Origin: Psammoneis japonica
Lineage: Eukaryota
Reading direction: 5' to 3'
DNA length: 58,902 nucleotides
Assembly (NCBI GenBank): GCA_008632985.1
Contig: QPGO01000059.1
Location: forward strand, 372,001 to 430,902
In this document: piece after piece, positions 12,447 through 58,902 of the stretch
How positions within the stretch are numbered: position 1 is the stretch's first letter
Layout: every line of letters begins with the position of its first letter
Made by a program: the position numbers and the translations under genes
The notes under the pieces: model-generated
What the model saw: the letters and a program-made list of their open reading frames with translations, nothing else
The model's database searches: none
What the model was told of the DNA's origin: nothing

Positions 12447-12478
12447 ACAGTGACCTGGTTCAAAGCAGTTTGATGGTC
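12175..12478. repeat. Tandem duplication, ~150-bp unit
   Basis: caatggattgcaagctgttccc...ggttcaaagcagtttga present twice; several of the differences fall at CG sites. Confidence 0.9.
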
Positions 12479-17213: not shown

Positions 17214-17714
17214 TTTGGAGGTAGGTAGATTCCATTGCCGAGATGTCTGCCTTCTGCCCATTCTTGCGATCGCCTCGCTCTAGGGTTCCTTCCGAACATA
17301 TGTGCTTTCAATTAAAGTAATTAACATCGTGAATATCTGATCTTATGCAGCACTTGTGTCCACGGCAGATGCAGCTCGTTTGGGGCCACATTCTTGAAAT
17401 CGACTTCCAGGAGAGAAGAGAGGATGGCTTCCCCCGACATGTGGAATGCTCCAGATGAGCCAAGTGCGAAATAATAACTACTAGCAGAGTGCTTTGAAGA
17501 ATAGAATTCATGTAAAAGAGCGCTCAGGTGATGGAAACGAGGCGGTCGTTTTTGGTCCTTTGTTCCTTGGCGCCCAATTCTTCTCCCCATGTGCAGATCT
17601 GAATGCTTTATCTTCCGAATCTTTTGAACCGCTCGTCCTTCGCTGCTGTTCAACGTGGAATCCACAATCATTCTACTCTACGTACACACATTCTCAGCAT
17701 CTTTCTACATGTCA

Positions 17715-19930: not shown

Positions 19931-20146
19931 CTCTACTCTCTAGCTAGCTAGCAGCTGGTGGCAGGAGAGGACGAACAAAGCAGAGACGACCCAGCCAGGT
20001 GTCCGATGTCCCGCGGCTGACGTCCGCGTTCTCATTTTTCACGAACGACATCCGCGGATCGCAACGCATTCAACATCGCGCTTCACGACAAGAACCAAGT
20101 GTGATGGGTCGATTAATGCTCATTTCACCATTAGACTCTGCTTATA

Positions 20147-30391: not shown

Positions 30392-30567
30392 CGGGAGATT
30401 GATTGATCGATTGAAGTGTGACGGCGGACGGCGAGGGTTAACGATCTCTTCAATCTTCTGTCTTGATTCCTCCTATTCTATCGGGAGATTTATCGCTCAA
30501 TTGAAGTGCGAAGTGCGACGGCGGACGGCGAGGGTCAACGATCTCTTCAATCTTCTTTCTTGATCCC
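30392..30567. repeat. Imperfect tandem duplication (~90 bp) upstream of the sulfatase
   Basis: cgggagatt...gacggcggacggcgagggt(t/c)aacgatctcttcaatcttct..cttgat present twice. Confidence 0.85.
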
Positions 30568-30569
30568 AT

Positions 30570-32540
30570 CCAGCGACATGCCGCCCCCTTGCACGAGAGA
30601 CCATGATGTTTGGTGTGTGAACATCCAGATTCCCACAGCAGCCCACTGAGAAGGTGGACTGATTTATTGTCGGTGATCGGTGATGGTGATGAAAAAGACT
30701 ATGTTCGTTTCGGTGTGTCGCTCGTCTGCATCAACGGTGCGTGCAGCTGAGTGCCGCTGTGTGACTTGTTGTGCAACTGATGGCCAAAGAAGATCCAGAA
30801 AAAACAAACTGGACAACAGCATTTTGCCTGCTCTGTGGAACAATGAAGGTGGAGACAACAAGAAAGGAGTTTCTGGTTCAGGGTTGCGACATTTCGTCAC
30901 CAACAAGACATTGGGGTCAATGACCAAGAAAAGGTTCTTGACAAAGAAGACCCAAAGCCAACGACTGCACAGCCGCAGTCCGCAAGCAGCAGCAGTGCCT
31001 GGGACAGAGTGGCAAAGAAGATGATCACAAAGCCATTTTTGCAAGCTGGAGCCAACAAGGATGGGAAAATCAAAAGTGGGCCACAAAGACAATTGGGCTG
31101 ATGCAGGTGCTGCTGCTGCTGTGTCTTTGGTGCTGACGGCAATGGCCTGCAGAAGGCTGCCTCCTCCGTTGCTTGAAGAGTGTGCACTTGCAGAGGCACA
31201 GTGACTTGTCAACTGCAAATCATCTTGGGGGCTTTCAAATCCAACTGAGGATGAAAGAGAGCAAATGGACAAGGCAGTGGCAGCACAAAAAGGTTGGCAG
31301 GAGAGCTTTTGCACAGCTGTTGCTGTGTCAACGATGGCCAAAGACGTGCTGTTCCTGCACCCAAGAGAGGCAACGCTTGGCCAGGGCCAACAAGGGAACA
31401 GTCACTTTGACTTTGAGCAATTTGCAAAACTTGGTTTGGCGACAGTGCCAGCAAATCATGTTGCTTGCACCTGCTCTGGACCCCGTTTTGCTCTTGGCAC
31501 GAGCTGTGGTCATTTGGTCAGCTTGGCACAAGACTCAATTTTCAAGCCTTGGTGGCTCTGCCAAAGAGATGACAATGGTGCAGATGAGTGGCTGGGAGCA
31601 TGATGCACAGGAGCAACTTAAAGCATGGGCAGAGCCACAAAATGAAAAGCAAGTGAAAGAGCTGTGCAAGGCTCTGAACTTGCTGTTGAGCAAAGAGGTT
31701 GAAGTGACTGTGGTGCACAGAGTGAAGTGTTGTCACTTTCTTCCAGGGGAAATCAAGCACAGGCCTGTTTCAGGTCTGTCAGGTGTTGCACACAGGCTCA
31801 ACTCCCATCGCTGGCCCATTTTTGCACTCAGCACAACAAACTCCTTCAACATCATTTTCCCCCCAAATTGAAGGGGGCATGAGTGTGCACAAAACTTTTA
31901 TTTTTTTGTGTGCACTCACCTTTCGATTTTTGAAACAATCAAATTTGAAGGAGTTTAACATGCCAAACTGTGCAGAGGATCAAGCTCTTGCGGTGATGGA
32001 TTGAGGATCACCTCCTGGGAGGCTGGAACAGGCTGGCAGCTCGGTCCTCAAACCACTTGCGCATCCAAATGATCTCTGGCAAAATGGGCAAGTTGCTCAG
32101 CTTCTCTGCTCCATTTAAAGCACTTGAGTGGTGGAAGCCAGTGGTGTTGTCATCATTGCTGCCAAAGCTGCAGCTGCCCACATGACAGAGAGTGGGCAGT
32201 GGGCGATGATGTCATCTCTTGCTTTTTGGAAAAATGCGCCTGTCATCAAGGAAGGTGCAGCTGTGGCTGGAGTGGTTGAGGCAAACAAATTGGCAAAAGC
32301 ACTCTTGTGCATGCATCACCTTGATGTCATGTGAGATTGCGGCCCAGCTGGCAAGAGGCCAGAGCCAGGAGAGCACCTTTGTGATTGCCTTGCTCCTCAA
32401 AGAGAGAGAAGCACAGTTCAATGCGGGGTCATCTTTGCAGTTGTTTGCATTGCACATTTCCACCACAAGCTCGTGCCCAAAGTTGGCCTGGAGCCCAAAG
32501 ATGCAAATCACCAATTTTCTGTCTGCCAGCTCTGCTCTCT
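30570..32540. other. TpA/CpG-depleted hypermutated domain 3
   Basis: Few TA remain, nearly all in TTA/TAA context; decayed unidentified ORFs. Confidence 0.8.
30577..30738 (-). pseudogene. Degenerate partial copy of the adjacent sulfatase 5' coding region (30172-30304)
   Basis: gaacatcc(g/a)gat...gcccac(c/t)gagaaggtggactgat...gtcgctcgtctgcatcaacggtg shared; translates TVDADE...NIVFF. Confidence 0.8.
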
Positions 32541-32956
32541 CCCTCTATCCAGTGGTAGAGAGCAGACCTAAAACGAAGGCAACCTGACAGTCGAAATAAA
32601 ATGGCGGGAAAGTCAAACGCGTCGCCGCACGGTGGACGGACGTCACAAAGTCTAAAGTCAACAAAATATAAACATCACGATTCACGATCGAAGGCACAAC
32701 AAAGAACGAGAGGAACCCAATGAAAGTTAAACCTGCGATCTGAAAGACAACTTGAAACTGCCACTCTCACTCTTCGCTTTATTTTAAAAAGGGCTTCACG
32801 AAAACATTTGGGTTGCCAGTGAGTCCTTGTTGTTTTCGTGTTTCCTCCGATCTTCACACGCGCATCGACTCACGTTTCTTACAACGTTGAACGACGTTTC
32901 TTGTTTCTTCCCATCTCCAAAGTAACACATCATCAGCTTGGTTGGAATCATACATC

Positions 32957-34906: not shown

Positions 34907-36156
34907 TTACTGAGCCTTTGCGGGAGATTTGACAACCGGAGGCACGACTTCGCGTTCGCCCGTGTAGAGGACTTCTGATTTGTTTGTTTTCAACTGTTGC
35001 AGACGCCCGTCAGCACTGACGCCATTCTCTTCTGCAATCGCTTTGAGCGCAGCGATGGTCTTGACATTCTTTGAATAAACCTTGGCCTCGTCCTTGCTGT
35101 AGCTGTAATCAAACTCCAAAGTCTTCAACAAAACCGGGAGAATGTCTCGCCAGGCCCTCTCGTTGACCTCTTCAATGAGAAGATAGAGTGACTCACCATA
35201 GGTATCATGCGCCTCCCGAGCACCATTAAGTTTAAGCTTGTTTCGGTCCAACTTTTCAGATTGGCCCTTGCTCAACGACTTGTGGTGATCAGCCTTCTTT
35301 TCAGCAGCCTCCTGTAACTTTTCAACCTTACTGCGATAGTGCTTTAATTTCTCTCTGTGGTCTTCAAACTCCATAAGCCTAGAACTTACACGGTCCTTCG
35401 TGATTTTCTGCCATTTCTCAACGTAAACGATAATCTGCTTCTCGTACTGGTCCGCGTACATCTTGGTAAGCTTGTACGATTGTTGGCGTGCAGCGGCAAA
35501 AGAATTTTCGACGTTGAAGAATTCAGGCGGGGCTGTCTTTAAAGGAGCAAAAATCTTGAACTCTCCGTGCGTGGTAACAGAAGTGCCGGAAGAAGGAGCG
35601 ACGGTAGCGTCTTTTCCTTCGTCGTCTCCCTTGGAAGAAGCCTCTTCATCTGTCGCGGCTTTCTCTCCCGAATGATCAGAGTGCGGTTCTGTCTGAAGCG
35701 TCTCTTCGGCTGTCTCAAGAGTTTCTCCTGCTTCGGACTCATTATCCTCTTCTTCTTTCAATCCCGGGTCCGTGTGGTCGACCTGGAAAAGCGGCACCTT
35801 CGCTTCTTCGATGTTGAACACACCAGCGACTTTCTTGATGGGACTGTTTGTGACGAACACCTCAAAGTCTGACGCAGCCTGTGTGAATGCAACGAACAGC
35901 ACTTTTAGTGACATTGGGCTTGGAATCGATTGCTTTGCATTGCTTCTGTAGCACTTTTTCTGACCTTGAGGCTTTTCTCGTTGAGCGCGAGAATCGCATC
36001 GTGCTGTGCTTTCAAACTCGAAAGCAAGCTGTCAAGATTGGCTTGAAGTTCCTCAAAGTTCTTGGCAGCGGAGTCGACATCTGCTTCTATCGTCGTACTC
36101 GTTGCCATGTCCTTCAAAACATCAGCCTTTGCGGTTGTTTTTGGTGAAGATGACAT
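34907..36156 (-). CDS. BAR-domain-like coiled-coil protein; exons 36156-35965, 35878-34907
   Basis: In-frame intron; helical pattern with LKHYRSKVEKL and EKLDRNKLKL typical of BAR helices. Confidence 0.7.
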
Positions 36157-36336
36157 GGTGATGGCTTGGTTCGTATCTCGTATCGCTGATTTTTTTGTGA
36201 TTGATGATTCCAGATTTCACGATCTCGATCGATCCGGTACTCGTACGTTTCTACGTACGCCCGCACTGCTTAGTACAAAATCTACGTACGGCTAAGGACT
36301 GAGCACGACTGAATTCTCTCGCTTGACACACTCCAC

Positions 36337-36529
36337 TCACTCCCCAGCGTTCGGGGTAAAGCAAATGCTCAGACACTAATATATTTTATATACATAAAAT
36401 TTAATACCGATTTATACATACGTAAGCTTACGTACGTAGTTACTCATTACGTAGAAGTCTACGTATATAAAACTATCTACATCTACGTAGACCTCTAATC
36501 TCCCGAACGCTGGGGAGTGAAAGGGTTAT
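36337..36529. mobile_element. Small inverted-repeat element (MITE-like; possible piggyBac-type right end)
   Basis: Perfect 19-bp IR tcactccccagcgttcggg (36337-36355) / cccgaacgctggggagtga (36502-36520); AT/TACGTA-rich core; right side continues aagggtta. Confidence 0.55.
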
Positions 36530-36599
36530 GGGTCCCGAAAAACAGGGTTTGGGCCGATTTCTGGTACAAAACTCATGTAGAAAATTCACGTAGAACATC

Positions 36600-37965
36600 T
36601 TGTTCGTCGTGCGCTTTTCCCGTGCTTTGCGAAAAAGTGGGCCACGACCTCAAGGAATCGATTTCAGTCACAATGGTTGACACTCACTTTGCGCACACTT
36701 GCTTTTTGATGACAAACAAGACAATGTCCACCGTTCAGCAAAATTCCATCATTGGAAAATGTTCGCCGTGGTGGGACCACAGTGAGGTGCCGATCGAATT
36801 TCTGAAAATGGAGCTTTGAAGTGTTCATGCACAGAACAGTGTTGCTCACGCAAAAGTCATCATGCAAAGTGTCGACAGTTTCAGGGAAAAATGATTCCTT
36901 TCACTGATCCATGTGATTTTTGCACCAGCCCACATGTGGCTTGTTGAACGCATGGCATGGCAGGGCCCTGTGAATGCACCGTGACACTTGACACTCACGG
37001 AATCTCGCCATGTGATCAGGTGTCGAGTCATGGAGACATTTCAGAGAAATGGAGTCTTGACAAGATGATCTTGATAAAAATTGCAAGAACACCCACTCTA
37101 GAATCATCAAGCACAAGTGTTCTGGATGTGTTGAAAAGAAGACATTGTTGCCCCTGATGTGGAAGATTTTGCGACTCTTTCTTGCACAGCCGGAACTCTG
37201 TCACCAGCCTCCCTCACCTTTCTGTTTGTCTTGGTCTTTGGAGAAAATCATTCAGTTCATTTGGTTTCTTCAGTTTTGCAATTGTGTTGCATCAGCGCTG
37301 ATGGGTGTCTGTCACATCACAAGTTTGAAGCTTGCATCAACAACTTCTGGTGGGGGCAACCCACAGCTGCTGCAACAAGTGGGCCACAAGAAAAGGCAAG
37401 TTGAACAGCCAGCAGCACACCAGGAAGCCTCACAGGGTTCCCTTTTGGCGGTGCTGACTTGCTGGCTCTTCAACAGCGCTCACTCCAGTGAGTGTCTGAC
37501 ACTGTGTTTGACACTCTTGTTTGGTTTGTGCAACTCTGCTGCATTGGTGCCACCAGGCATCTGTTGCACTGCAAGTTTGAAGACTGCGTTGACAACTTCC
37601 AAGCAACCCACAGCCGCTGCAAGCAGAGCTGGTTTTGAGCTCACTCCAGTGGCAGCAGAAGTGGCAGGTCTGACAACTGAGGCAAATGATGTGGTCACAG
37701 AAGAGTTGACAAGAGTTGCAGGTCTTCTCTGGCACAAAGAAGAAGACCACCTGAGACGAAGTTCTGTCGGGGAGTTTTTGTGTCACAATTTTGTGTTTTG
37801 GCAGTGTGGCAACTGGAAAGCACACAAGAGCACAAGTTTGAACTGTGAAATCAATGGGCAGGAGCACAACAGCGAACGAGGCAATGGGGAGATGATGATT
37901 TTTGCAACCACTCGAAGACTTCATGCTTCATGTGTGGTGGATCGAGCATGCATGTTCACAAAGCG
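36600..37965. other. TpA-depleted hypermutated domain 4 (unidentified decayed element)
   Basis: Only about two TA seen; CpG partly retained; flanks have normal composition. Confidence 0.75.
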
Positions 37966-38185
37966 ACAAATACATCCGGGTTTTGACGATTTTTTGGATT
38001 TCGGATTCGGCGTTTTCGGCTTCGCGAGTGTATGTCTGTGTACGGTACGGTATCTGCAACTCTGCAACTCTACTGTACGGTATTCTCTCTTGAGAGAGGA
38101 GATCCAGCTGTACTTGTCTCACCTCCTTGTTTTGTATAATTTTGTCATTTTAAGACCTTTTTAATATTGTTCGGCGACTAGCAAC

Positions 38186-39078
38186 ATGTTTTCAATCCGA
38201 ACGAGTGCGACGAGGGCTTTGGTCTCGTTGAATCGACCAGGAGGAACCGCATGTGCTGTACGGAGACTCTGGGGGGCACAGTTTTCTTCGTTTGCTCCTC
38301 GAAAGCCATATCGAAAGAACAATCGTCGTCCAAGCAATCGACGAACCGTCAAAAAGGCTGCTGTTGTGACTACAGAATTATCGGAAGATGACGTCCCAAG
38401 CCTTGCAATGGCTAAATCAATGCCGGTTTCTCTGAGAATGATGGACAACACGTCCTTGACCGCAATGGGTGCCAGTGGAAACCACAAGGCTCTCGAGGAA
38501 ATGATAAAAAGGCACATAATGGCGACAGACGAAATCGGCTACCACCAAGCAAGTGAGATTTATGCTGAGATTGAGAAAAAGAATCATGAATGGGAAATCT
38601 TTTTGGCATTTCCATTCCAATCTGCCATTATAGTTCTTTTCACGGCCGGTTGCCTTTCGATTCCGCTAGTGTTTCATCTTCCAACGGTTGAGTTTTTCAA
38701 TGAACACTTTGTTACCGCCGAACACCCTCCAATCAAGGAGCTGGAGACGTCTCTAGAAACAGCAAGTTGGGCATGGAATTGGATGGAGCCAGTGCTAGGA
38801 ACCTCTACGTTTCTGCTTTTGTGCTTGCAGTACATGAGGTGAGTTACTCATTTTCGCTGTTATGGATACGGGAAATGTTGTGATTACAACGCAGTCTCAA
38901 TCTTTGTGTTTGTTGCAGAATGCATTTACGGCACCTTGGTGTGAATCCGTACACTGTTAGAATGAAACGATTGCGCGCACGTCATTTGGCAGATGCATTC
39001 CCTCAGTATAATGAGGAACTTTTGGTTGCATACAGTGAGGCCACGCCATTCTATAACGCCAAAGATTTGTGGTTCTAG
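38186..39078 (+). CDS. Probable mitochondrial membrane protein of unknown function; exons 38186-38838, 38919-39078
   Basis: Arg/Ser-rich presequence, two TM segments, WAWNWMEP motif; in-frame intron (813 nt CDS). Confidence 0.75.
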
Positions 39079-39538
39079 ACAAGTCACAATGTGTACATAC
39101 TGTCACACCTATGAAGTGTTGTGACGCACTGTCAAGTGGGAACTCAAAAAAAACTCATATGTAACATGTTTAAGATTGCATTCTCCCTTCTTTCTGAAGT
39201 TTGAACTCATCATTTCGCCGGATACCGTGCGGTGCTCCAGCCCCCTTGACATTGAATAGTCGCTACTAAATTACCGTATGAGAGCCCTACTATCCGGCCG
39301 GATGTGATGGAGAGACCATGCGAATCAAAATATCAAAATTTGAAAATATCTTGGTATCCTAATAATAGATCTGATAACACTGGATCTTTCTCACAACGTG
39401 ACGACACTACTTGTGCGCTTTCACAAGAGTAGTAGTAGCAGTCCATCAGTAATACTCTGGAGAGAATAGGAAGATACCTCGGCTTGAGTTCATCGCACGT
39501 CAACATCAAAACTTTGCTGTACCCTCTCTAAAAAGACC

Positions 39539-40419
39539 ATGATTCGCAAGCTCCTACTTGTCTTGGCATTTGCAGGCGTCGCCAGTGGCAAAATGATGCC
39601 GCCCAAGTCGTTTCTTTCGTCTTCTGCGTTGTCCGTTCGCGGTGGAGCAGAACCCATCGAAACGGCTGTCAAAGCTGGATCTAGCCTTCTCGACCCACGC
39701 TTGGTAGCTAATGTTGCCATGGGCATTAGCCTGCTTCAAGGCTCATACTGTGTGCTTGCTCCTGTCAAGGCTTGGGAGATGTATGGGTCAGAGAGCGAGG
39801 CAGCGGGATTCACGAGCTGATTATGGAAAGGATCGGGGCCGTGTTAGTTGGCCTTTTCCTGACATCTTACTGGCTCATCTCAAAAGAGAGCAGCGTTTCA
39901 GCTGCAGTTGGTGTGGGCTGTCTTCCGTTTGTTGTTTACTTGGTCAAGAGCATTCTAAACGGAACCGCAAAGACTCTAGGGTACCCTCAAGGCGCTGATT
40001 TGCTTGCATTAGCCATCACCGGAACTGTCGCATGCTTGGGAATGACGGACTCGTCCAAGTTTGGGACAGCTCTGAAGGCCTTTGGATTCTGGAATGCTGC
40101 CAATTGTTTGCTTCTTCTGGTTGAGCGTGCTGATCGTTGCAAATTCTGGGGATCAGAAATCTCCAGCACTGCAGAGACTTTGCAGGCAAGGGTTCTTGGA
40201 TGTTGGATGTTGTCGGCCGGAATCATGCAGCTTGCTCTTGACCAAGGAATGGACAGTCTCAAGGCTTTGGGATTTTCCTGGATTGCCACATTAGCTGTCT
40301 CGGTGACAATTGCCTTCATTGCCAAAGAGGTCGAATCCTTAGAGATTGACAAGATTCCTCACTGCGTCTGGATGGTGGTTGAGCTGGCTGTGAGTGGGAC
40401 GCTGGCCATTTTGTCATAA
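39539..40419 (+). pseudogene. Frameshifted multi-pass membrane protein gene (signal peptide, VRGG motif)
   Basis: Two overlapping ORFs continue each other across a frame break at ~39810; the 3' part is TA-depleted. Confidence 0.6.
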
Positions 40420-42050
40420 AATGAAGGACGTCCGAACACATGTTTCGCAGTTGTGGGGGTCCGTTCAAGAGTGCATTGAACACGTTGAGATCAAGATGGC
40501 TTTAAAAATCAGTGTAGATTTGCATTGTTGAGCACCATTTTAGCTCCGACGCGACCAATCGCCGCCCCCAACACTGCAATGGCACCACACAACCTGCTTT
40601 CCCACCGTTGTCGGTTTGTCGCGTTCTCACCCATGCTTGTCACTGCAGCTCGAAACATGAGCGCAGGAAAGATGAAAATGAGTGAAGTTCCAAACACAGC
40701 ACCAGACATGCTCGCCACGAACGTCAGGTCCTGAACATTTGGCGCAAGGCGGCAACAAAAGACACCAACCCCACCGAAAGGTTTCTGAGGAGTGAATCGG
40801 TTCGTCGTTTCTCCGGGACGTTTGACAAATCAAGAAATCCATCACAAGTTCCAACAAACAAGAGAGGACAGGAGAACACCAGGGAGAGCGCCATGGCAAA
40901 CTGACTGAACTGATGAGAGCATCGTTTGTTGCGCAGTCATTCAGTGTCAACCCCTGCGTTGCTGATCCAAAGGTTGAGAATCCCAGGACGTCACCAGTGC
41001 GTACATTGCCATTGATGTGCCAAACGATGCACTCACGACTCGGTTGAAGCAGCTCAGCGTGTTGTTCTTTAATTCCCTGAAAAAGTTGGGGGCATTGAAA
41101 TGAGCAATGTACGCTGTGCTCAGCATGCAAATGAGAATCAATGAGTTTGGACTCAACGCGCCTGTTGCACCTGTTGAACCAAATGCCGGTTGCACAGTGG
41201 TTGGCAAGTCTGCCAAGAATCGCCCCCCTGGTGTCGCATGGGAACCATCAAAGAATCGAGTGACGACTGCGATCGCGGTGCATGTCATTCCAGATGTGCC
41301 AAGCAAAGAAAATGGAGCCAACAACGACAGATTCTTCACTGGACACAATGGCAAGAGTGCAGCTCCTGTCAATCCAAGCAAGGCCCTTGATTTCGTGACA
41401 TTGATTCCAGTTGCAGCCAGCAGATCCTTGAATGTGTGAGAAAGCACCATGCTGTGCATCAAATTTCCAGCAAAGCAGTCCAGACACGAGGGTGCAGCCA
41501 CAATCCAAGCTGTGCGTGTCCCTCTGGTCTTTTGTCCCAGGCATCAGCGTAAGAGTTGGCTCCTGTGAGCAAGCATGCTCATGCAATCAAGGAAAATGTG
41601 CATGCAGAAATGAAACCCATGACTGCAATGAGGATGATTGCAGGAATGAGTGCACTCGGGGCATCACCGAAAGCGGTGACACCAGCCGGCAAACTCAGAA
41701 TTCCAGCCCCAATGATGCTCTTGACCAGATTGAACATTTCGTTTGGAATGGCAGCTGTTCCTTCTGAAATGTTCTCTGCTGCCATGGCTCCTCCACCTGC
41801 CATGCGTGTCACACTGTTGCTTTCCTTCTTTTTGTGATTTGACCTTGTTGCCAAACAAGCACTCTGCTCCCACCTGCTTGGAGAGCCACATTGACGAGGC
41901 AACGCTGCATCATTGAAACAATGTGTCGGGGCAATGTGTGCAAAGAAAGCAGCAACACGCCAATGGCATCCGTTTTGCAACGTCTCATGGTCGCTCTTCT
42001 TGTTGGCACAATCGCTGATCGCTGAGCGGCAGGAAATTGGCGCAGAAAAA
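39990..42050. other. TpA-depleted hypermutated domain 5 (CpG largely retained)
   Basis: About ten TA left in ~2 kb, mostly TTA/TAA, while many CG survive. Confidence 0.8.
40509..41990 (-). pseudogene. Amino acid transporter (Aa_trans/SLC38-like) pseudogene
   Basis: FNLVKSIIGAGILSLPAG, KNLSLLAPFSLLG, LSTAYIAHFNAP, GAVFGTSLIFIFPALMF spread over several frames; Tyr->Cys/His changes. Confidence 0.85.
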
Positions 42051-42332
42051 AATGGCGGACAAACGTCATCCCGGACGTCCGCCAGACTTGAGACTGTGGC
42101 GCGGAAATCTCGTTTGGAATTTACAGTCCCGGTAGTTGTGTTGTGGGAATGTTCAATTTCGATTGAGCTACTAGTCTACGTTACTTCGTTGCTTGACTCT
42201 ACTCTAGAGTAAAAGTATCGTATCTGTTGGGCATCGTTGTTCATTGATTGGTCTTTTAAACTTATCTTTAAAATGAAATATCTTTTTCAAAAAAAGATGT
42301 GTTCAAAATAATGCAAAATCAAAAGTAGATTT

Positions 42333-42929
42333 TTACCGTCTCAAGACTCGCTGTTGCTGTTGCTGTTGACTATGAATCATCATTTCTACCCATATTGTAT
42401 TGGGATCCAATCGGTCAGTACTAGTACTCTTGTGTCGTCTCATGGAATAAGGACCAACGTTTTTCCTTGTCGACACATTGTCATTGTCGACAATTAGCAA
42501 GACATCCTGTGATTTGCGATTGTGAACAAGCACAGGTTTCTTCATTGTCTTGTTGCTGCTATTCTTCTTTGTCTTCTCGAGAGGCGATGGGTAGTCCATG
42601 ACGGCTTCTGGAACCATCCAGTATCGAACAGCGTCTTGAATATTCGTTGGCAATGATGCTGATGATGATGCTGATGGGTCTTGGTGTCTTTCGCCGTCGT
42701 CGTCATTATTTGTTGTTGTGGATGTTACTTCACTCGCATCGACGGGTTTGTTCTTTCCCAAGCCCAAATCATAACTTTGTCGATTCTTTGCAAAGCGCGG
42801 CAGGGCGGAACTTGAAAGATCATGGTGTGTGTGTGGACTTGAAGAACCAATCACAAAGGCAAACGAGGATGGGAGCGATGTTGCCAAGAGCAACACGGCT
42901 GTCGTCATGATGTGGCTGTTGCGTGTCAT
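42333..42929 (-). CDS. Hypothetical plastid-targeted protein
   Basis: Signal peptide ending SSFAF-V, S/H-rich transit-like region, YDLGLGKNKP and DPNTIWVEMMIH blocks. Confidence 0.65.
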   Translation of the reverse strand: MTRNSHIMTTAVLLLATSLPSSFAFVIGSSSPHTHHDLSSSALPRFAKNRQSYDLGLGKNKPVDASEVTSTTTNNDDDGERHQDPSASSSASLPTNIQDAVRYWMVPEAVMDYPSPLEKTKKNSSNKTMKKPVLVHNRKSQDVLLIVDNDNVSTRKNVGPYSMRRHKSTSTDRLDPNTIWVEMMIHSQQQQQQRVLRR

Positions 42930-43460
42930 GATTGGATGGAAATGAAATGTCCAATGAAAGAGATTCTTGAGTTGTCCTGCTGGCTCAGAGCTTGCGCAGA
43001 TTGCAGATGGGCTGATGAGTTTGTGTGCCTCACGAAAGTATTGTGAAGAATTTCGAAAAAGTCGCCACGACCACTTTCATGACCAACTCATTGCGGTTAC
43101 CCGCGTAGAAAATGTACTGTCTCCTACGTGTTTTGCACAGGAATGACTTCGATGGAAAGCGCGCCAACATTTATTGCGACTCGTTAGACTCGAATTGCTG
43201 CTCGAGCTCGCGAACGAGTTCGAACTTCAAAGAACAAGAATGCACATGAGTTAGTTTGTCTTTCTCAAGAGTAAAGGGCATCCAATAGTGTCCGATACAA
43301 AATTGAAAATGCACAGACAACTTACGAGTTACTAAACAACATTCTACATGGGATCATACTGATGACAATGTATGTAAATTCTCATACAAATTCTACGCTA
43401 GAAAATCTGCGGTGCATCGTCTCACACTTTCACGCATTTTGCGTTTCTTCTCCCGTCACC

Positions 43461-44634
43461 ATGGGTAAATACGTTCAGGTGCGTGTGAAATTTGTATCGC
43501 TGCGTTACGTAATGCATACCGCGAGCATCTGTCATGTTTGATGGAGAGTGCTGCGGTGTTCAATTGGAAGCAGCGGCAGTGACAAATTCATGATGATGCT
43601 TGCTTCGTTGTTGTTGTCGTTGCTCATGGCCGAGAAAATCCGTTCGGGTTATCAGTCCAACTTGAACTGCTCCCACTTTTTTCAAGAATTTTTTGAATTC
43701 TAACCCAACTTAGTGTTTTCCTTCTCTCTACTTTCATATAACTCGGGCATGAACACTTAAACTTCTCATTCATGTCTCTCCCTCGACTCCTTTTGATATA
43801 CCCTACTGCTGTAATTACATCTTTGCGATGCCAACAACGTATTGGATAATGCATTGATTATTATTTTACAAATTACAGGCGCAACGTAAGGGTAAGGGCG
43901 GCATTTTCGTCGCTCACACGCGCACCCGCAAGGGTGCCGTCAAGCTCCGTCCTTTGGACTATGCGGAAAAGCACGGTTACATTCGTGGTGTGGTGAAGGA
44001 AATTCTTCACGATCCCGGTCGCGGTGCTCCCGTGGCCAAGGTGCAGTTTCTCAACGCGTACCGTTACAAGCGCGACACGGAACTTTTGCTCTGTACCGAA
44101 GGCATGTACACGGGCCAATTCATCTACTGCGGTAGCAAGGCTACTCTAGAAGTTGGCAATGTTTTGCCCCTTTCGGCTGTTCCCGAGGGTACGATCGTCT
44201 GCAACATTGAAGCCAAGGTTGGTGACCGTGGCTCGTTTGCTCGCGGATCCGGTGCCTTTGCCGTGGTTGTCACTCACGATGAGGACAATGGCACGACCCG
44301 TTTGCGTTTGCCATCGGGTGGTAAAAAGACGGTCCCGTCCAATGTCCGTGCCCAGATTGGTGTCGTGGCCGGAGGTGGACGTACCGACAAGCCACTCTTG
44401 AAGGCCGGAAACGCCTACCACAAGTACCGCGTCAAGCGCAACTGCTGGCCCAAGATTCGTGGTGTGGCCAAGAACCCCGTGGAGCATCCCCACGGTGGTG
44501 GTAACCACCAGCACATTGGTATGCCTTCCACTGTGTCCAAGGAGCGTCCTGCTGGTCGTAAGGTTGGTTTGATTGGTGCCCGCCGTACCGGACGTCTTCG
44601 TGGAGTCAAGAAGACTGCTCAGGATAAGGATTAA
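43461..44634 (+). CDS. RPL8: 60S ribosomal protein L8 (uL2); exons 43461-43478, 43879-44634
   Basis: [46 protein letters not shown]; strong codon bias. Confidence 0.97.
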
Positions 44635-47390: not shown

Positions 47391-48199
47391 TGTTTTAACA
47401 AACTTCGCTGATGGTGCTTTGGATAGACAACAGCTCCAACGAACGCCATTGCGATGCAGAATTTTGATTTTCGTGCCGAGCGGTTGGATTGGTGGCAGCT
47501 TTCTACGTAATATTTGTGTAGAAACTTACATACGAGAGACGTCGTATCTCTCTATCTAGGTACAGTATCTACTCTATAGGTATGTACAGAGTATCCTTCA
47601 GAGTCTGTCTGTGTCCCGTTTGAATCTCTCCGAGACTTTTTTTGGAACAGTTGTTGAGTTTATTTTTTGAAAAAGCATCTCACATGAATTGCCAATCACC
47701 AACGGTTTTCCTCTTTCCTTGCCATTTTTCAGCTCAGCACCGGAGTGCAGCTCACAACCTAGAGGATAACTCACTTGTTTTTTGTGCTGCTCCACTTTTT
47801 TAAGTGGCGCTGCTTTGACACATCATTCTTTGAACAGCGCCACAGAGAGAGCTCATCGTTGACCGCGATGGATCCCCTGACAAGCAAATGCTTGAAACCA
47901 TCATCTGTGGACAAGTGTCTGGCAAATTCTCTATCTAAGACCTTCACACCAAAAAAGCTTGCATCATGCACCCATGGTTGCATCACCTTCACATCCTGTC
48001 CAGCCAACACTGAATGCTGCCACCTTCTGTGCTCAAGAAAGAGCACCCGGGGCACGGCATCTGCTGCGAGACCTCCATCATGAACAAAGCACTCAATGCT
48101 CTGATGAAAAATGAACAAACCACCCCCCAATGTGTAAAGTGAGTGGCTGTCACAAGTCATTCTTGCTCCTGAGCCTCATCAGAAAGATGTCGCGGACAT

Positions 48200-49400
48200 C
48201 AACGAATTCATGTGGTGACTCTGCATCAGCCCCCCACATCAACCTCAATCGAGTGACAAAGAAGCAGTCTCACACTGCACCCCTTGCTGTGATGATGGCT
48301 GCCATGGAGCATGGTTTCAGCTTGGCTTGGCTTCACATTTTTGCCTGCTTGGTGCATTCAGTGGACATTGTCAAATCAAGATGGGGGGCACGGCAAGCCA
48401 CCAAAACAGCACTCTCTTGCAGCTCCACAAGGGGGTGTGGGGAAAGTGCCGACACATGCTGTCATGCCCTTTGGAGTCATGAACAAGCCCACCACATGTG
48501 TCACATGGTGTGCAGCTTGAAGAACAACTGGGAAAATGAAGCCAAAGTCATGGGCACCACACTTGATGACAGCGGCAGCTCCGCCACAAACATTGACGAC
48601 AATTTTGGATTTGTGGAAGAAGGGTGTGACACAGGCCTGCAACATGTCAAGGCAATCCTTTGTGTTGCCCATGCCTCTGCAACCTGTCTTGGAAACTCAA
48701 GAAACATCTGTTCTTCCCAAAGCTGGTCAAACTTGTGGGTCAGAATCTTGCAAAACTTGGAAACCTTCCAGCACACTCCACACTTTGCAGACTGACTCAA
48801 GCACATCCATGAGCTGGTCAAGAATCATGACTTCAGTCACAAGATCAATGATGCCAAATGGGCTGATGCCCTCAACAGCAAGTTTGAAGACATCAAATCT
48901 GCCACATTGTCTGAGCCACTGCTCCATCAAGTTGACGGCAAAAAAAGTGACCACACCTGCATGCCGACTTTTCAGGGTGGGGGGTGGGGCATGCACTGCT
49001 CAAGCCAGGAGACACAAAGCATCATTGGCAGCTGTGGAAAGAGAAGATGCAGGTTGGAAGTGTGAACTCAACATGCCCCCATCTGGCCTGCACCTCTTTC
49101 CATGCACATTTGGCTCACAATGGTGCAAAGGCATCAAGCGATGCCTCCACTCCTGTGTTGGAGAGGGAGCAGCCCTTAGATGGGGCGATTCACAAAAGTC
49201 CTGCACAGCTCATGGCCATTTGCCAACATCAAAGACTGCCATGGGCTGCATTGGATTGCATGCCATAAAGGCTGCAATCCTGCCATTGTCTCATTGCAAA
49301 TGGAGCTGGCATCATGGCAGTTCACTGTCACCCATCAACCCACTGGCATTCTCATCAATGCCAACTGCTTCTCTCAATGCAGCCAAGAAGTTGACTTGGT
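48200..49400 (+). mobile_element. Decayed Ty3/Gypsy pol: reverse transcriptase + RNase H
   Basis: LNRVTK, TKTA, VMPFGVMN, NIDD, KLKK; LFPCTFGSQWCKG..LHSCVGEG, DCHGLHWI...LQMEL...HQP...NANCFSQ (resembles D..L.WI...HRP...DADYFSR). Confidence 0.8.
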
Positions 49401-49836
49401 CCCATGACCCACTGCCAGCTGAGCATGTCTCCACAGCACAAGAGCAACTGGCACCAGATCTTCCAGCAGCCACACAGGTCAAACCCAAGAATGTGCCCCA
49501 CTTTTGTTGTGATGCAAAATCTGCCAAGTCAGAGAATGTTGCCACCACAGTCCCCACAAACCTGTCCAATCCAAGTGAAGTGGAAGAAGCACCACTCGGA
49601 AAACCTGCTGAGCCAATTGCTCTCCACCCATGTTTCAGCACCATGAAATCATCATTTCAACTGGTGAACCACAATTTGGCACTGCATTGTTTCTCATTCA
49701 GCAACTTCTTCTCATCATGCAAAGACCATCAGATTCATTGACAGTTGTCATTGCTGCCAACTGTGACATGTTTAGTCAAAAAATGTTGTGCAAGACATCA
49801 GACAAGACCCTGTCATCTTGTCATCAGCAGCCCATC

Positions 49837-50268
49837 TCCTGAGTGAACCACATCAAGTGCAGCACCACACAGGAGCTTGAAGGGAGCCATGTGACGCCAC
49901 CAGATCCAGCCAGTGCATCTTCTCAGCTGCAATTTGCTCAGACTCAAGCAACCATCATTTGTGAATTGCAGCACTGGTGGTGCCACCTTGGTGCTTTGCA
50001 CTGCAAGCCTCCTCCATGTTCAAGCACACTGTCTTGTCTCAATTTTGCAAATCCTGAATGAACCACATCAAGTGCAGCACCACACAGGAGCTTGAAGGGA
50101 GCCATGTGACGCCACCAGATCCAGCCAGTGCATCTTCTCAGCTGCAATTTGCTCAGACTCAAGCAACCATCATTTGTGAATTGCGCTGGTGGCACCACCT
50201 TGGTGCTTTGCACTGCAAGCCTCCTCCATGTTCAAGCGCACTGTCTTGTCTCAATTTTACAAATCCTG
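49837..50268. repeat. Tandem duplication, 215-bp unit
   Basis: tgaaccacatcaagtgc...aaatcctg present twice, near identical. Confidence 0.95.
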
Positions 50269-51149
50269 CATGACAGAAGGATGGCACATCACAGAGGATC
50301 ACATCAAATGCACAACAACAGGTGATGCTGTTGATCACTCCACCTCATTCATGATTGGACTTTGCACAGGTGTCACAGGGGAGAAAGTTTCTGTTGACAT
50401 CCTTTGACCAACCCCAACAAAACCATCCATTGTGCTGCTTGACACCCTTGCAAACCCTTCAACTCCAAAAGCTTTGGGACATCTGCTCTGCCTGATGCCA
50501 CAAATGCTGAAGCCAATGATGACAAGTTTGCCCTGGAGACTGTCAATCCCATCCAACCACCATCCCTGCTTGAACTGTGATGGTGGGACAGCCAATCAAG
50601 AAGGGTCCCTGACCCTCCAATCTGTGCAGTGTGGAGGTGTGTGGTGTGGGTCATCCAGCTCCAGCCACTGGCTCAGTCAACAACAATGCACATTCAGTCA
50701 CCTGTTTGACACCCTTTGTCATCAAGATGAAGAATCAAAACCCAAATTTGATGCATCTCTGCTTGTGAGTGTGTGTCTTGTTGGGATTTGGAGAGTGCAA
50801 CCTCACATGCAAGTCATGTGCAGACACATGTCACCTCAATTTGTTGGCAAGTGGCACACTGAAAAAGCAGCCGCACAACTGACTGACACACAGCTGTCAT
50901 CGGTCAAGCTCATTGACACATTCACAGGAAAAAGCTCCAGCCACAACTGCTCAAGCACATTTCCCAATGGCTCAACATCAACCCATCTTCCAAGTCATTG
51001 AACTTGGACCCAGGAACACTGTCAAGATCCTGTGACAAAAAGCATGATGGGCATGCACCAATCTCATCTGACCTGTCCTCAACCAACAAAAAGACAACTT
51101 GCAGAAGATGCACTTCTGCTGTGAGCAACCCACACATGCAGGAAATGTC

Positions 51150-52450
51150 ATCATCAACAATGATGCACTCATTCTCCACAAATCAGTTGACTCTGCAGGA
51201 AATTTTGCAAAGCTTTGAATCACACCAGCCTCTCTTCAGAATGTTGTCTTTGTTGCACTCAACACAAAACCCACAGGCAGTCATTTCAGCATGTGCTGCA
51301 CTTTCCATGACCTTGTCAAACTCCAGCACTGTTGACCCAACATGTGTGAGCACATCACAGACTGGATCAGCAAATGCCAAGGATGCACACTGGCCAGTGC
51401 GTGACACCAGAAGAAATGTGAGCTCGTGCACTCCTTTTTGGTTGATGAAGTGCTCAAACTCATCCATGTGGATGTGCAGCACAATGTTGGACATCAACAG
51501 GGGTTTCATCAAGGTGAAAAATGTCACATGGATGTGGTTGATGGCCTGAGCACATTTGCAGCATCCAAGAAAGTCCAAGGCAAAGTCAATGCCAACAGTT
51601 TCAGAAGAGCCATCATGAAAATTCTCCGGAGCCATGGCCTCTGCCATGCTGTCATCATCAACAAAAACTCCAAGTTCTGTGGAGCATTCATTCAGGCTGT
51701 GTCTCCCTGGCAGGACTTGACCTCCATCAAACATCAGGAGGCAACTGTGACCTGGTGTTGACCAAATGTTGTCACATGCTCCTCAACAAATCCCTCCAAA
51801 TGTTCTGCACTGAACAAGACTCAGTCCACACTGGTGCCAAAGGTGTCCACCTTGCAGCACATGCATGGAGAAGTGCTGCCCCAGTTGTTGGCACTGACTC
51901 ACCAAGCTGACTCCCAGAGCTGCTGTTGGTTGCAACCATCAGTTCCCATTCAAACTGTGCCAATTCAAAGCATGTCAATCTTCAGCCAATGTGACAAGCA
52001 GTTGCACAATCTCCTCTCCAAATGTCAAGAAGCACTCAAAATCCTCATCCAAGAGCATCAAGCCATGTGCCATGAGCACATCAGCAGCAATCACCTGGAT
52101 CCACTGGTGCACTCTGTGTTGGACACTTTGTTTTAGTTCAACAAGCCATCAAATCAGATGCCCAACACAGACAAATCAACAAAATTGTGTTTGACCACAC
52201 TGGCCCATGGAAAATCATTGAAAGGATTCCAGGAGCCTTGCATTGCATCCATCGCTGCAGCAGGACCAAAGCAGAGGACAAAAGGCATGCTTCTCACATT
52301 TCCCCATGCCCTCTGGAGCCAGCTCCTTTCCCTCCTTTTGCAGGACCAGACAACTCCTGTGGACACATCAACAGAGCAATCAAAAAGAAGCACCCTTTTC
52401 TGGAAGCTGGCATTGACTCCCACATGCCACTCCAACCCTGAAAACTTGCT
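51150..52450 (+). mobile_element. Decayed Ty3/Gypsy integrase
   Basis: Zinc-finger-like region (GSHF...PNMCEHITDWISKCQGC), IHVD...VVDGLSTFA...HGLCHAVIINKNSKF core, HTGPWKII GPY/F motif. Confidence 0.75.
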
Positions 52451-54951
52451 GATCTGAGCAGTGCACCACCATCCCAGTCCTTGCCATGTCTCTGGCAAAC
52501 ATGGCGTGCATTGGATCTGCTGTGCACTTTCCAACACTTGCTGATTGTGATGACAAAGAATTTGATGGGGTGCACACTGAAGATGAGCTCTTGCCAGCAG
52601 CAATGGATCATTGCAAACCTTCATTGAATCCTGTTTTCATTGAGACACTTGAAGGCATCAAGTCCATGATTGGACTGTTGCCTGCACACTGCACAGCAAA
52701 ACTGCAAACTGTCCCAGTTGGTGCCAAATCCAAATCACAGCTCATGTCTTGCATTGTCTGGAGCAAGCACGCAGAGCATTCTTCATCTGCAAATGACCGA
52801 GATTTCAAATTTTTCACAAAACTTGTCAAAACACAACAACAACGGCAACCACAAATGCAACGTGCTCCATCAATGACCACAAACTCACCATGACAATGAC
52901 ATGTGTTGATGGCTTGCAATCAACTTCACATGCACATGCCTTGCTGTGCTTTGAAATTGATTGAGTGCTGTGAAAACAGCTGAAATGGTGGTGTTCAATG
53001 TTTTGCCCATCACTTTTTGACCACACAAGTCAACAACAAGCCCGCTGTGCTCTCGCGTGTCAATTCTGCCATGCATGAGTTCACAAGATGTGATGTTGAT
53101 TGTTGCAGCTCTGGAAGGCAACACAGTTGAGAAAACAGTGACCACAGAGTGGTCGCCATGGTGGGGTGGTTTCCAGGAATTTCTGGCTGTGGCAAACCAA
53201 TGGCAAATTCACACCAAACTGAGTCATGTGCCCACCATTGCCAGTGGCAGGGCTGGCAGCAACAACAAATCATGACTTGGCAGGAAAAACAACTGAGCTT
53301 CTCAGAGGGCAAAATTTGTGTTGAACTCTTCATGCAACATCCACACAATGTCCAGCTCAATGCTTTGAACCAGACTTTTTGGAAAGAATGTCACAAACTC
53401 AATGGACAATTTGCCCTCCATGACAATTTTCATCTGCTCAAAACACCTCCCAACAAGTGCCAGCAAAAAGCACCTCATCATCTTCTTGCAATGGGCCCAT
53501 GTTGTTGATCATGCAGATGTGTGCCTCCACTGCAGACCCTTCAATTTTGCCATGATCAATGGCCAGCAGATGATGCATGGTGTCAAGCAAGTGTCCTCCA
53601 AAGAATGAGCATCTTGTCAACATTGTCTCAGCAATGCAAGAACAAACCCCCAAGCAAGCAGCCATCCCATCCACAATTCTCACATCACATGAATGCACAG
53701 CAACAAACTGACCATTGGGGCCCCACCACAGAAGCCCACGCATCTGCTGTCCTTGCTCATGAGTGTGTGCACAACTGTTGAATGTTGAGCTGTCACAAGC
53801 CATTGCACTTGAAAGCTGAGCTCTCAAACAATTGGTGAGCTCTGAATGAACTCCCACATCTCTCAAAATCTTGTCTTTCTCAAATTTCATTTCGTCAGTC
53901 AAATTCAGTGCTGATTTGGTGCCAAAACCATGCCCCAGCAAGCCCAAAATGGGTGCCCCAAATTTTTTTTTCTTTTTCAATCAATGCCCTTCAGGTTTTT
54001 GTGACCATGCTTTTCCTCCTGGCCTGTCACATCCTTTTTCAATGTCCCCATGGTGCTCTCTCTGCTCTTCTTTTTAACACTGTTTGGGAGGCATTGTGAA
54101 AATTTTGTGGGGAAAAGGGCAGAAATGAAACAGTGCTGTTTGCAAATGTGCCAATTTGTGGAAAAACGCTCAAATGGCTTGAGGGCAAAGAGTGCAGCTG
54201 AGAGCTGCCTCACCATGCAAACAATGCAACAATGGCCAAAATGCCGCCATTCATTGAAGGCAATGGAGGAGGTGGAGAGGCATCCAGGCCTGTTCCAGCT
54301 CCAGGTGCTCCGCTTTTCATCACGCTAGATTTTCTGTGCAGTTTTCAGCACCAGACATTTTTGTCTCCACCCGGCAGAGCTTGCACTTTTTGGCTTTTTG
54401 TGAACATCAATTGTTTGAATGACGCAACATGTTTGTCATGTCAGTGCTCATCTGCAACAACTGAGGTGCATGTTGTGTCACAGGAAGAATCGTGTCAGTT
54501 GGCATTTAATGTTTTTCTGGTGATGCGCAGAACAATGCTGACTTCTGTGAACACGTGCCATCCACCCAACACACACACCAGCCATGATGCAGCACACCAC
54601 TGTCACCACTCCACAACCCCCTCTTCTGCTCCTTTCATTTCAAAGTTGTGTCATTGTTGTCACAACACGATTGCAGCTCTAAGGAGTGGCTGTTGTTGCA
54701 GACAACACCATCTCTTCATGTTCCCTTGTTTCAAATTCGGCAAGTTGATTCATCGTGTTTTTTTTGCACGTCACCGTGCGCGTGCATTTTTCTGGTTGCT
54801 TCTCACGTCTCGTTTTATGGTTGTTTCGCACCAGGGCCTTCGGAATTTCTACAAAACTCAAGTGTTCCCCCAAACATTCTCCAAGTGACAGTTGCCACTG
54901 GAACAAACTTGTCTTGGTTTGTTTTCACTGTGATGCTTGCTGTTTGCACTT

Positions 54952-55180
54952 TTCAGCATCTGGAGCTGCCTCAGAGGCTGCCTCTGTTCATCCGCATCAC
55001 TTTTGCGGTGACTGATGTTGGCCCCATCTCTGGAGTGCATTTGTCATGCAAGCGGGAGTGCAGCTTGCTGTTTGATGCTTTCCAGCATCTGGAATTGCCT
55101 TGGAGGCTGCCTCTGTTCATCTGTGTCACTTTTGCGGTGGCTGATGTTGGCCCCCTCTCTGGAGTGCATTTGTCGTGCAC
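54952..55180. repeat. Direct repeat, ~100-bp unit, ~129-bp period
   Basis: cagcatctgga...gaggctgcctctgttcatc...ctctggagtgcatttgtc present twice. Confidence 0.9.
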
Positions 55181-56329
55181 AAACAGGAGTGCAAAAGCAA
55201 TGCAATTGCCATGGACATGTTGGCCAAAGCAGCCTCCCAGCAGCATCCCATTGGCGGCAGTTCCCCTCAAGCAAACGATGACTCTTCCAGCACATTGAAG
55301 GTTTCCTTTTGCATCCAGCATTGCATCAAGGCACTCAAGGAACATTGCCCGCCACAGGGCAAAGCCAAAACTTGGTGCACTGTGCCTCTTCAAGATGCAG
55401 TTGATCCCCTTGCGTGCCCTCAAGGTCTTGCAGATTTGAGCGTCTTGACCACGGAAGATTGTGGAGCCAAGAAGATGAGCCCTCTCTTTCATGTTCTTCA
55501 TCACAAGAATGGCTTCAATGGGTTCAACAGTGCCAAAACACGGAACATGTTCCGCAACACTGTTGTTGGCTGGTTTTGTAAAAAAAATTTAATGCTGAGA
55601 ATCGACTGCAACCAAACCAATGCATCAAGGACAAGAGCCAGCACCTCTTGATGTTGGTTGTGGTGCCATCAGGAACGTCAATGAGGGATGCCATGAAGGA
55701 CAAGCAAAACATTGCCGCTGTTTTGATGCACCGTGTCATGACAAACATTGGCCTGCTTGTTGATTGCATCCTCCGTGTGACAGAGTCTCAGGTTGTGGAG
55801 GTTGGGATGGGCAATGAGAGACTGTTGATTGCACCATCGAGTCAAGGTGTTTGTCCTTTTTTGACTGGACTTGCCCAAGCCATTTGCTGTGTTGTTGTCA
55901 AGAGATGGATGCACACCTTCATTGTCAGAAGACATTGAAGTCTCATCACATGGGAGAGATGGGTTTGAGGACATCATGGACACCATGAGCAATCGTTCCA
56001 ACCTGGCGAATGTCCACAAGCACTGGAGTGGGGTCATCTCATGCAGAATGACAGAGGCAACACTGGTTGCCCTGTGTGCAAAGGAGACGGTTGCTCCAAT
56101 GGCTCTGCAATTGTTTTGGCATTGTGCCTCGCTCCAGCCCAGAGTGTCAGAATGTCGCAACAGAGATTTGCAGCAATGAAGACTGTTGGGAGCAACCACT
56201 CAATGAAGGAGGATGCATTGCTGATCATTCGTGCAATGCCAAGCACCAATTCCACAAGGCATCTTTGGTCAACATTCAAAACCTGGAAACGTGCGATGAC
56301 AAAAAGTTGACCAAAGATTTGAGGATCCA

Positions 56330-58700: not shown

Positions 58701-58902
58701 TCTGCAACAAGTGTTCATGGTGTGCCAGTTTGAGCTTCCTGGGGTGGTGCAGCAGCAGTTGTGTGGAAAAAGGAAAGCTTTTGTGTTGGATGGTTAATCT
58801 GGTTGCACAATGTAAAGTGACAATCACAGTGTTTGTTTGCTTTCCCATTGCCATTTTGTTGATCAGACTCGTCACTGTCACTGTCCCCTGCTGCACTCTT
58901 GC

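Follow-up and report, generated by a model that had tools for sequence, protein, structure and literature searches.

A 58,902-nucleotide stretch of the genome of the diatom Psammoneis japonica (contig QPGO01000059.1 of assembly GCA_008632985.1, positions 372,001-430,902 of the forward strand; hereafter, the window) contains a dead copy of an ordinary diatom host-family gene, an amino-acid transporter of the Aa_trans family, from which the dinucleotide TA has been almost completely erased. Put honestly, the conversion has affected about nine in ten of its TA and between a tenth and half of its CG. We consider it probable that this transporter copy was killed recently and lies in a 2.1-kb tract that was hit by two distinct transition processes acting at the level of DNA, one directed at TpA and the other at CpG. 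The features on which the argument turns are the following (positions are those of the window; o/e, ratio of observed to expected dinucleotides):

40509..41988, minus strand: Aa_trans (amino-acid transporter) pseudogene, from the conserved start ATG (41986-41988) to the TGA stop (40509-40511)
41579..41581, minus strand: in-frame TGA (CGA>TGA) in a column with Arg in 100% of orthologs; also present in the read-derived contig
41530..41533, minus strand: frameshift in a run of four A, between 'ADAWD' and 'KTRG'; no gap against the read-derived contig
40011..42121, unstranded: TA-poor tract, 10 TA in 2111 bases, TG+CA at 184-201 per kb throughout; wider than first reported
40542..42121, unstranded: core of the tract, 4 TA (o/e 0.043), 73 CG (o/e 0.71), TG o/e 1.76, CA o/e 1.49

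The identity of the gene follows from several searches. The two largest open reading frame (ORF) pieces match PF01490 with E values of 1.5e-5 and 1.4e-5 (24.3 and 24.4 bits), slightly below the cut-off of 25.6; a database search with one ORF piece recovered 259 diatom homologs, the best of which has 69% identity (E 4e-71); PF01490 is present in all 120 homologs among the matches listed; and all named relatives are diatom proteins. In a tblastn comparison, the pseudogene aligns colinearly with residues 14-483 of an ortholog 483 residues long, so that it is a full-length copy; it is intronless, as are most of the orthologous metagenome loci. The reading frame is not intact: in the window, the copy has five interruptions, one in-frame TGA and four frameshifts, and both the TGA at the conserved Arg and the frameshift in the A-run recur in reads. 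The start ATG lies in a frame other than that of the core of the pseudogene, and there may be one more frameshift in the poorly conserved N-terminus. A Pfam scan of the 116 stop-free ORFs of at least 110 amino acids in the whole window detected no viral or transposon domains in the tract.

For comparison with reads, we used a public sequencing run, X1, which contains 89% of the sampled words from 36000-43500. One X1 contig (7461 bases, word depth 59) spans 37782-43500 and differs from the window over that span by 17 substitutions and four one-base insertions, three of which fall within the transporter:

after 40747, 40907 and 40985, minus strand: one-base gaps of the window, the X1 contig having one extra base at each

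When an N is placed at each of these three points, a single open frame runs from 41531 to 40512, in agreement with the frameshifts inferred earlier, and the fourth insertion, after 39801 in ordinary DNA, joins two ORFs of the neighbouring gene. Because the insertions restore reading frames, the read-derived contig is more accurate than the window. Each of the four deletions in the window (39801, 40747, 40907, 40985) breaks an ORF, and they are either one-base deletion errors or haplotype differences. In the X1 contig, the sequence is TA-free as well, and both the TGA and the frameshift in the A-run are retained; the lack of a gap at 41530-41533 implies that this frameshift is real. Within 40011-42121, there is no site with TA in the X1 contig where the window has TG or CA. 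The transporter, as seen in the reads, still carries a nonsense codon and one or two frameshifts.

The substitutions between the window and the reads follow a pattern of their own. Six of the eight substitutions inside the tract have a CG in the reads opposite TG or CA of the window, and a seventh also creates a CG in the reads; the CG count of the region is accordingly about 72 in the reads versus 65 in the window. One further in-tract site has CG in the window and CA in the reads. With this site included, differences between the window and the reads occur at 7 of 96 CpG sites in the tract versus 1 of 157 in the flanks (p=0.005). The in-tract differences are nearly all at CpG (40127, 40647, 40985, 41007, 41126, 41175, and 41890). 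They could be due to heterozygosity, that is, heterozygous CpG decay, or to long-read miscalls at modified cytosines.

In 40509-42050, there are 6 TA (o/e 0.06) and 65 CG (o/e 0.66), with TG and CA at o/e 1.78 and 1.54, respectively. As the baseline, we took 19 ordinary ORFs of the same window, with 34.4±6.2 TA, 53.8±9.0 CG, and 149±12 TG+CA per kb. The ordinary ORFs of the window have TA o/e of 0.52 and TG/CA o/e of 1.20 and are diatom-like in content, including, by Pfam, mTERF, lipase, UQ_con, Spondin_N, sulfatase, ABC1, and ribosomal L2. Against the 19 ORFs, the region has z=-4.9 for TA and +4.8 for TG+CA, and just -1.3 for CG; the probability of at most six TA in 40509-42050 is 3e-16. The right edge of the tract is abrupt: 572 bases without TA are followed, from 42122 onward, by approximately one TA per 9 bases.

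The direction of change can be read codon by codon. The read-through translation, with X at the breaks, was aligned with 80 full-length orthologs; in the 233 columns with 70% conservation or more, mismatches were classed by the single-base change that yields the present codon, with the neighbouring bases considered. The 43 mismatches fall into these classes:

TA>TG/CA: 17 of 43 (9 TG, 8 CA on the coding strand)
CG>TG/CA: 9 of 43 (5 TG, 4 CA on the coding strand), including the sole nonsense codon, CGA>TGA
the four reverse types: 0 of 43
other transitions: 4 of 43
transversions: 10 of 43
multi-step changes: 3 of 43

In particular, there are no CA>TA or TG>TA changes among the 43 mismatches. Among the ten conserved Tyr columns, two retain Tyr, four have Cys (TGY), two have His (CAY), and two have Phe; Ile (ATA) became Thr (ACA) at three columns, and Leu became Pro (CCA) once and Ser (TCA) once. 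The eight conserved Arg columns comprise three that are kept (CGA), one TGA, two Cys, one Gln, and one Lys. In the orthologs, Tyr is retained in 93% of the cells of these columns, and Tyr>Cys/His is found in only 2 of 800 cells. As a control for the classifier, we used 20 intact orthologous coding sequences from metagenome contigs, which yield means of 0.85 TA-type (maximum 4), 0.75 CG-type (maximum 3), and 1.4 reverse-type changes; the pseudogene, by the same classifier, yields 17 TA-type, 8 CG-type (plus the stop), and 0 reverse-type changes.

Non-signature mismatches against the family consensus amount to 17 of 233 (7.3%), versus 9.3±4% in functional orthologs, so there is no detectable excess of ordinary mutation. 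Given the lack of such an excess, together with the full-length colinearity of the copy and the small number of lesions, both signature processes must have been far faster than background mutation. The transporter probably was functional until shortly before the hypermutation, or until the hypermutation itself. An earlier note on this DNA had described the element as a young, full-length pseudogene of an ordinary host gene, with many CG and about five TA in some 1.5 kb, and this description holds up well: the CG-rich strings that it quoted are present, and the true TA count is six.

How much of each dinucleotide was lost depends on the baseline, and accordingly, we give ranges. In 63 orthologous coding stretches, TA o/e is 0.73±0.15 with a minimum of 0.40, CG o/e is 0.82±0.18, and TG/CA o/e is at most 1.41; the TA and TG/CA values of the pseudogene (0.06 and 1.66) are far outside these ranges, whereas its CG value (0.66) is inside. 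The orthologous stretches being never TA-poor, and the orthologs at large keeping Tyr, the parent gene was not naturally TA-poor. The TA loss comes to 89% when the window's own genes serve as the baseline, to 91% with GC-matched orthologs, and to 83-84% with the lowest baseline. The CG loss, from counts against the mean baseline, is 20-22% for the window and 11-13% for the reads, with an upper bound of 44-49% should the parent have been as dense in CG as the most CG-dense ordinary ORF. Thus, losses of 83-91% of TA stand against 11-49% of CG, and whole-sequence counts separate the two even under the least favourable baselines (Fisher p=4e-4). Neither outcome that the earlier note had named as fatal to its view, similar fractions of ancestral TA and CG lost or a naturally TA-poor parent, was therefore observed.

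Several observations weigh against this interpretation. Three of the five frame breaks of the window are missing from the reads, so that the window overstates the decay of the gene, and X1 is not a fully independent witness, given that its library type is not on record and that it may come from the sample behind the assembly. By itself, the CG density of the region (z=-1.3 for the window, z=-0.8 for the reads) is no outlier among ordinary genes, so that the case for CpG decay is carried by the nine codon changes. A mass balance of the TG+CA excess puts the CG loss at ~39%, above the count-based figure. Finally, in the codons alone, the fractions lost are inseparable, 4 of 7 CGN Arg codons versus 6 of 8 Tyr codons (p=0.61).

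With these reservations, the data support the view that TA erasure is separate from, and faster than, CpG decay. The earlier note went further and held that TpA erasure came before CpG decay, uncoupled from it and fast or burst-like. The separateness of the two processes and the more advanced state of the first stand; the order and the burst would be extrapolations from a single snapshot in which CpG decay had already begun (9 of 43 mismatches).

Under the scenario that we favour, the first process would have converted TpA to TpG or CpA on both strands, nearly to completion, with ~85-90% of the ancestral TA removed; its chemistry might be enzymatic adenine deamination or thymine modification at TpA in silenced chromatin. 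The second process would be the decay of CpG to TpG or CpA, most likely by deamination of 5-methylcytosine, and would have removed about a tenth to half of the CG here, as opposed to 70-90% in older blocks of the window. Both types of change are balanced on the coding strand (9:8 for the TA type, 5:4 for the CG type). This equality of the strands, along with the extension of the tract beyond the coding region and the lack of an A-tail, argues for a DNA-level process and against a retrocopy of an RNA edited on one strand. We observe the direction and strand symmetry of the changes, their confinement, their presence in the reads, and the unequal losses; which enzymes act, what triggers them, and which process came first we infer.

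The CpG component has a familiar counterpart. Deamination of 5-methylcytosine in methylated DNA yields CG>TG/CA changes, with the classic CGA>TGA nonsense and Arg>Cys/Gln missense mutations. The CG>TG/CA changes seen here are likewise strand-symmetric and strongest in old repeat blocks, and the nine codon changes exceed the control maximum of three. However, 5-methylcytosine decay cannot explain the loss of TA, and in this tract, the CG type is the minor one (9 vs 17), with most CG retained. Deamination of 5-methylcytosine in silenced DNA would, most simply, be the cause of the CG loss.

The TpA component calls for comparison with repeat-induced point mutation (RIP), which, in Neurospora and other ascomycetes, converts CpA to TpA, raising TA, and acts on duplicated sequence. 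The resemblance consists in local, dinucleotide-specific transition hypermutation with sharp borders, which leaves a gene copy riddled with missense and nonsense changes. The direction is the opposite, however: here, TA falls (o/e 0.06), CpA and TpG rise, and A:T pairs are the targets.

A much closer parallel comes from the chlorarachniophyte Bigelowiella natans. In a preprint whose Discussion also outlines RIP and its features, mutation-accumulation lines of B. natans acquired 211 de novo changes in a region of integrated giant-virus DNA, 210 of them TpA>TpG/CpA; the rate was ~1000 times the background, the effect was seen in some lines only and in a single-copy region, and an adenosine deaminase was proposed (Mettrop et al., bioRxiv 10.64898/2026.01.13.699255). 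CpG goes unmentioned there (bioRxiv 10.64898/2026.01.13.699255). The two cases share the TpA>TpG/CpA changes on both strands, the sharply delimited regions, the depletion of TpA with enrichment of CpA and TpG, and a pace far above that of background mutation, which in the diatom is indicated indirectly by the functional-ortholog level of the non-signature divergence. Some TpA-poor genes of B. natans carry host-type domains, and the transporter is likewise of the host type. The differences are that the present case is found in a diatom, a stramenopile; that the erasure is near-complete, with TA o/e of 0.04-0.06, unlike the viral region of B. natans (Rho 0.45); that the target is a host-family transporter gene rather than foreign DNA such as a virus or transposon; and that CpG decay accompanies the erasure of TA. 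Given that the B. natans process acts at TpA with nearly no other changes, we argue that the CG loss in the diatom tract is a second process. The same TpA signature, therefore, is already known outside diatoms (bioRxiv 10.64898/2026.01.13.699255). A literature search, with subscription journals outside its reach, found nothing on TpA-type hypermutation in diatoms.

The tract is one of six sharply bounded domains that dinucleotide profiling delineates in the window; these domains have hardly any TA, and TG/CA at nearly double the expectation:

12074-14565: domain 1; 2 TA and 25 CG in 2492 bases, CG o/e 0.16
17707-19933: domain 2
30492-32545: domain 3, including 30492-30990, a TA-erased block with CG kept (o/e 0.79) that partly duplicates adjacent host sequence
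36592-37970: domain 4, including 36592-37000, a TA-erased block with CG kept (o/e 0.78), a high-copy repeat by read depth
40542-42121: domain 5, the core of the transporter tract
47937-58902: domain 6; in 6a, 6 TA and 38 CG in 6064 bases, CG o/e 0.11; in 6b, 18 TA and 91 CG in 4902 bases, CG o/e 0.33

As the earlier note had it, domains 1 and 6 have lost both dinucleotides; all the blocks apart from those that keep CG have CG o/e of 0.11-0.33, with TA at the floor. The converse pattern, CG gone and TA kept, was not found in any of the 500-base windows of the stretch. If CpG methylation is assumed to be equal everywhere, the residual CG might serve as a marker of the age of the domains.

That assumption is where the most serious competing explanation enters. 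Two processes may have acted, but with CG being no clock: the CpGs of the tract would be less methylated than those of putatively transposon-derived blocks, not younger. In favour of this, CpG methylation in diatoms is concentrated on transposons; the three blocks that keep CG include a host-family gene and one (30492-30990) that is in part a duplicate of host sequence; and the CG density of the tract is inside the ordinary-gene range. Conversely, the third such block, 36592-37000, is a high-copy repeat (depth 1500-4400 versus 59), the nine CG-type codon changes versus a control mean of 0.75 indicate that CpGs here mutate far above background, and the excess of CpG differences between the window and the reads (7/96 vs 1/157) suggests that the CpGs of the tract are unstable or modified. 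We regard this possibility as distinctly less likely than the scenario favoured above, but it deserves to be taken seriously.

A simpler scheme would have a single mutator with two targets, TpA hit efficiently and CpG less so, such that all blocks lie on one trajectory. Both losses end in TG/CA, occur in the same blocks and with the same edges in most domains, and are strand-symmetric (9:8 and 5:4), all of which such a mutator would produce. Nevertheless, it seems unlikely, considering that 210 of the 211 changes reported for the hypermutable regions of B. natans are at TpA and that CG o/e ranges from 0.11 to 0.79 among blocks where TA is already at the floor.

Very little probability remains for an artefact of assembly or base calling, whereby modified bases of an intact gene would have been misread as TG/CA in a long-read assembly. 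The four one-base deletions and the six or seven sites with TG/CA in place of CG are indeed typical of an imperfectly polished long-read assembly, but the X1 contig, which corrects these errors at a depth of 59, is still TA-free and has the TGA and the A-run frameshift, which largely refutes this explanation.

Marginally less credible still is a retrocopy of a transcript that was hyper-edited from A to I at UpA. ADAR-type hyper-editing acts on double-stranded RNA, and its A>G changes with a 5' T/U neighbour resemble those seen here; the copy is intronless, and the tract is roughly coextensive with the gene. Yet editing of one RNA strand would yield TA>TG only, and we see 9 TA>TG and 8 TA>CA on the coding strand; there is no A-run past the stop; the tract extends 5' of the start codon at one end and takes in part of the neighbouring ORF at the other; and the intronless state is shared with most of the orthologous metagenome loci. 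Unlike edits in RNA, the changes are fixed in genomic DNA, equally on both strands and beyond the coding region. The 5' U preference of ADAR-type enzymes, which speaks for such a retrocopy, is stated in the Discussion of the B. natans preprint (bioRxiv 10.64898/2026.01.13.699255).

A naturally TA-poor functional gene, shaped by codon bias or selection, has virtually no chance of being the answer and is refuted here. It is true that TA-free gaps as long as 267 bases and TA o/e values down to 0.32 occur in ordinary genes of the window, but the transporter is interrupted by a stop and by a frameshift, retains only two of its ten conserved Tyr, and has TA far below that of all 63 orthologous stretches (minimum 0.40).

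Beyond the transporter, a number of observations concern its surroundings. The flanking features are

42122..42335, unstranded: TA-rich spacer that ends the tract and adjoins the next gene, 42336-43076 (minus strand)
39488..40419, plus strand: convergent neighbouring ORF, the last 410 bases of which are within the TA-poor tract; split in the window by the one-base deletion at 39801 relative to the reads

A homolog search with the portion 39730-40416 of the convergent ORF found no homologs. A contig from another read library, X2, skips 80 bases with GT..AG ends (38836-38917), an intron of a gene at approximately 38100-39190, so that X2 behaves like an RNA library. With respect to the transporter itself, a 1193-base X2 contig matches just 41721-41755 (31 of 35 bases), a hint that the family has a further member and that this one is expressed; this single 35-base match is the entire X2 cover of the transporter, a gap in cover that is evidence on expression neither way.

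The remaining TA-poor domains yielded no Pfam family among the 116 stop-free ORFs of at least 110 amino acids. In a second Pfam run, on 150 of 156 ORFs of 55-109 amino acids inside these domains (the six left out being 55-residue ORFs), the single hit was a weak OTT_1508-like deaminase match in domain 6 (50981-51235, minus strand; E 0.003, 17.9 bits against a cut-off of 27). The match is curious given the suspected chemistry, but we dismissed it as probably a chance similarity in Cys-rich mutated sequence. In domain 4, the read contigs at 36502-37003 have depths of 1500-4400, versus 59 in the flanks, and come in many variants, as expected of a high-copy repeat; 15 of the 20 listed differences between the read copies of this repeat and the window are at TA/CG<->TG/CA sites. 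The internal duplicate 30180-30470/30481-30740 is too short for the fates of TA and CG to be counted.

Tandem copies in domain 6 differ by adjacent TG-versus-CA pairs, the mark of a single ancestral TA or CG that was resolved independently in each copy once the duplication had occurred. Four such cases were noticed in the short tandem duplications 49837-50273, 12176-12477, and 54935-55193, and because the copies differ in this manner, conversion must have continued after the duplications. The 39 TA that survive in all TA-poor domains are not a random sample: 11 (28%) are in TTAA, versus 4.5% of the TA in ordinary DNA, and 32 have a preceding T or a following A. This bias may stem from a preference of the mutator for certain flanking bases or from TA that arose anew from TG/CA. 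Unlike the other domains, domain 6a (48000-54000) is strand-asymmetric, with 838 CA versus 635 TG and a GC skew of about -0.15. Elsewhere in the window, a 125-base direct repeat (45176-45300/45724-45846, 98% identity) flanks the only N, at 45301, near which there are also inverted matches of 38-44 bases; this could be a gap or a collapsed assembly repeat.

What is new here is that the TpA signature is demonstrated in the individual codons of a recognisable host gene, against controls, that a read-derived contig confirms it, and that both losses are bounded. TpA-specific hypermutation was otherwise described in one preprint, for viral inserts in a rhizarian alga; its signature is now seen in a stramenopile, and a single stretch of DNA separates the TA process from CpG decay. 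There is also a practical side: because TA-free tracts allow only TGA stops, they give rise to long spurious ORFs that encode Cys/His-rich pseudo-proteins, and annotators of diatom genomes should be aware of these. The transporter provides a concrete, datable test case for finding the enzyme and the signal that marks the locus, and for learning whether host genes are collateral or deliberate targets. More speculatively, diatoms and chlorarachniophytes might share an epigenetically targeted, repeat-independent, TpA-directed form of DNA editing that destroys marked loci, ordinary host genes along with viruses and transposons, orders of magnitude faster than 5-methylcytosine decay does. If so, every silenced block would carry two independent clocks, with TA recording the onset of silencing and CG its duration.

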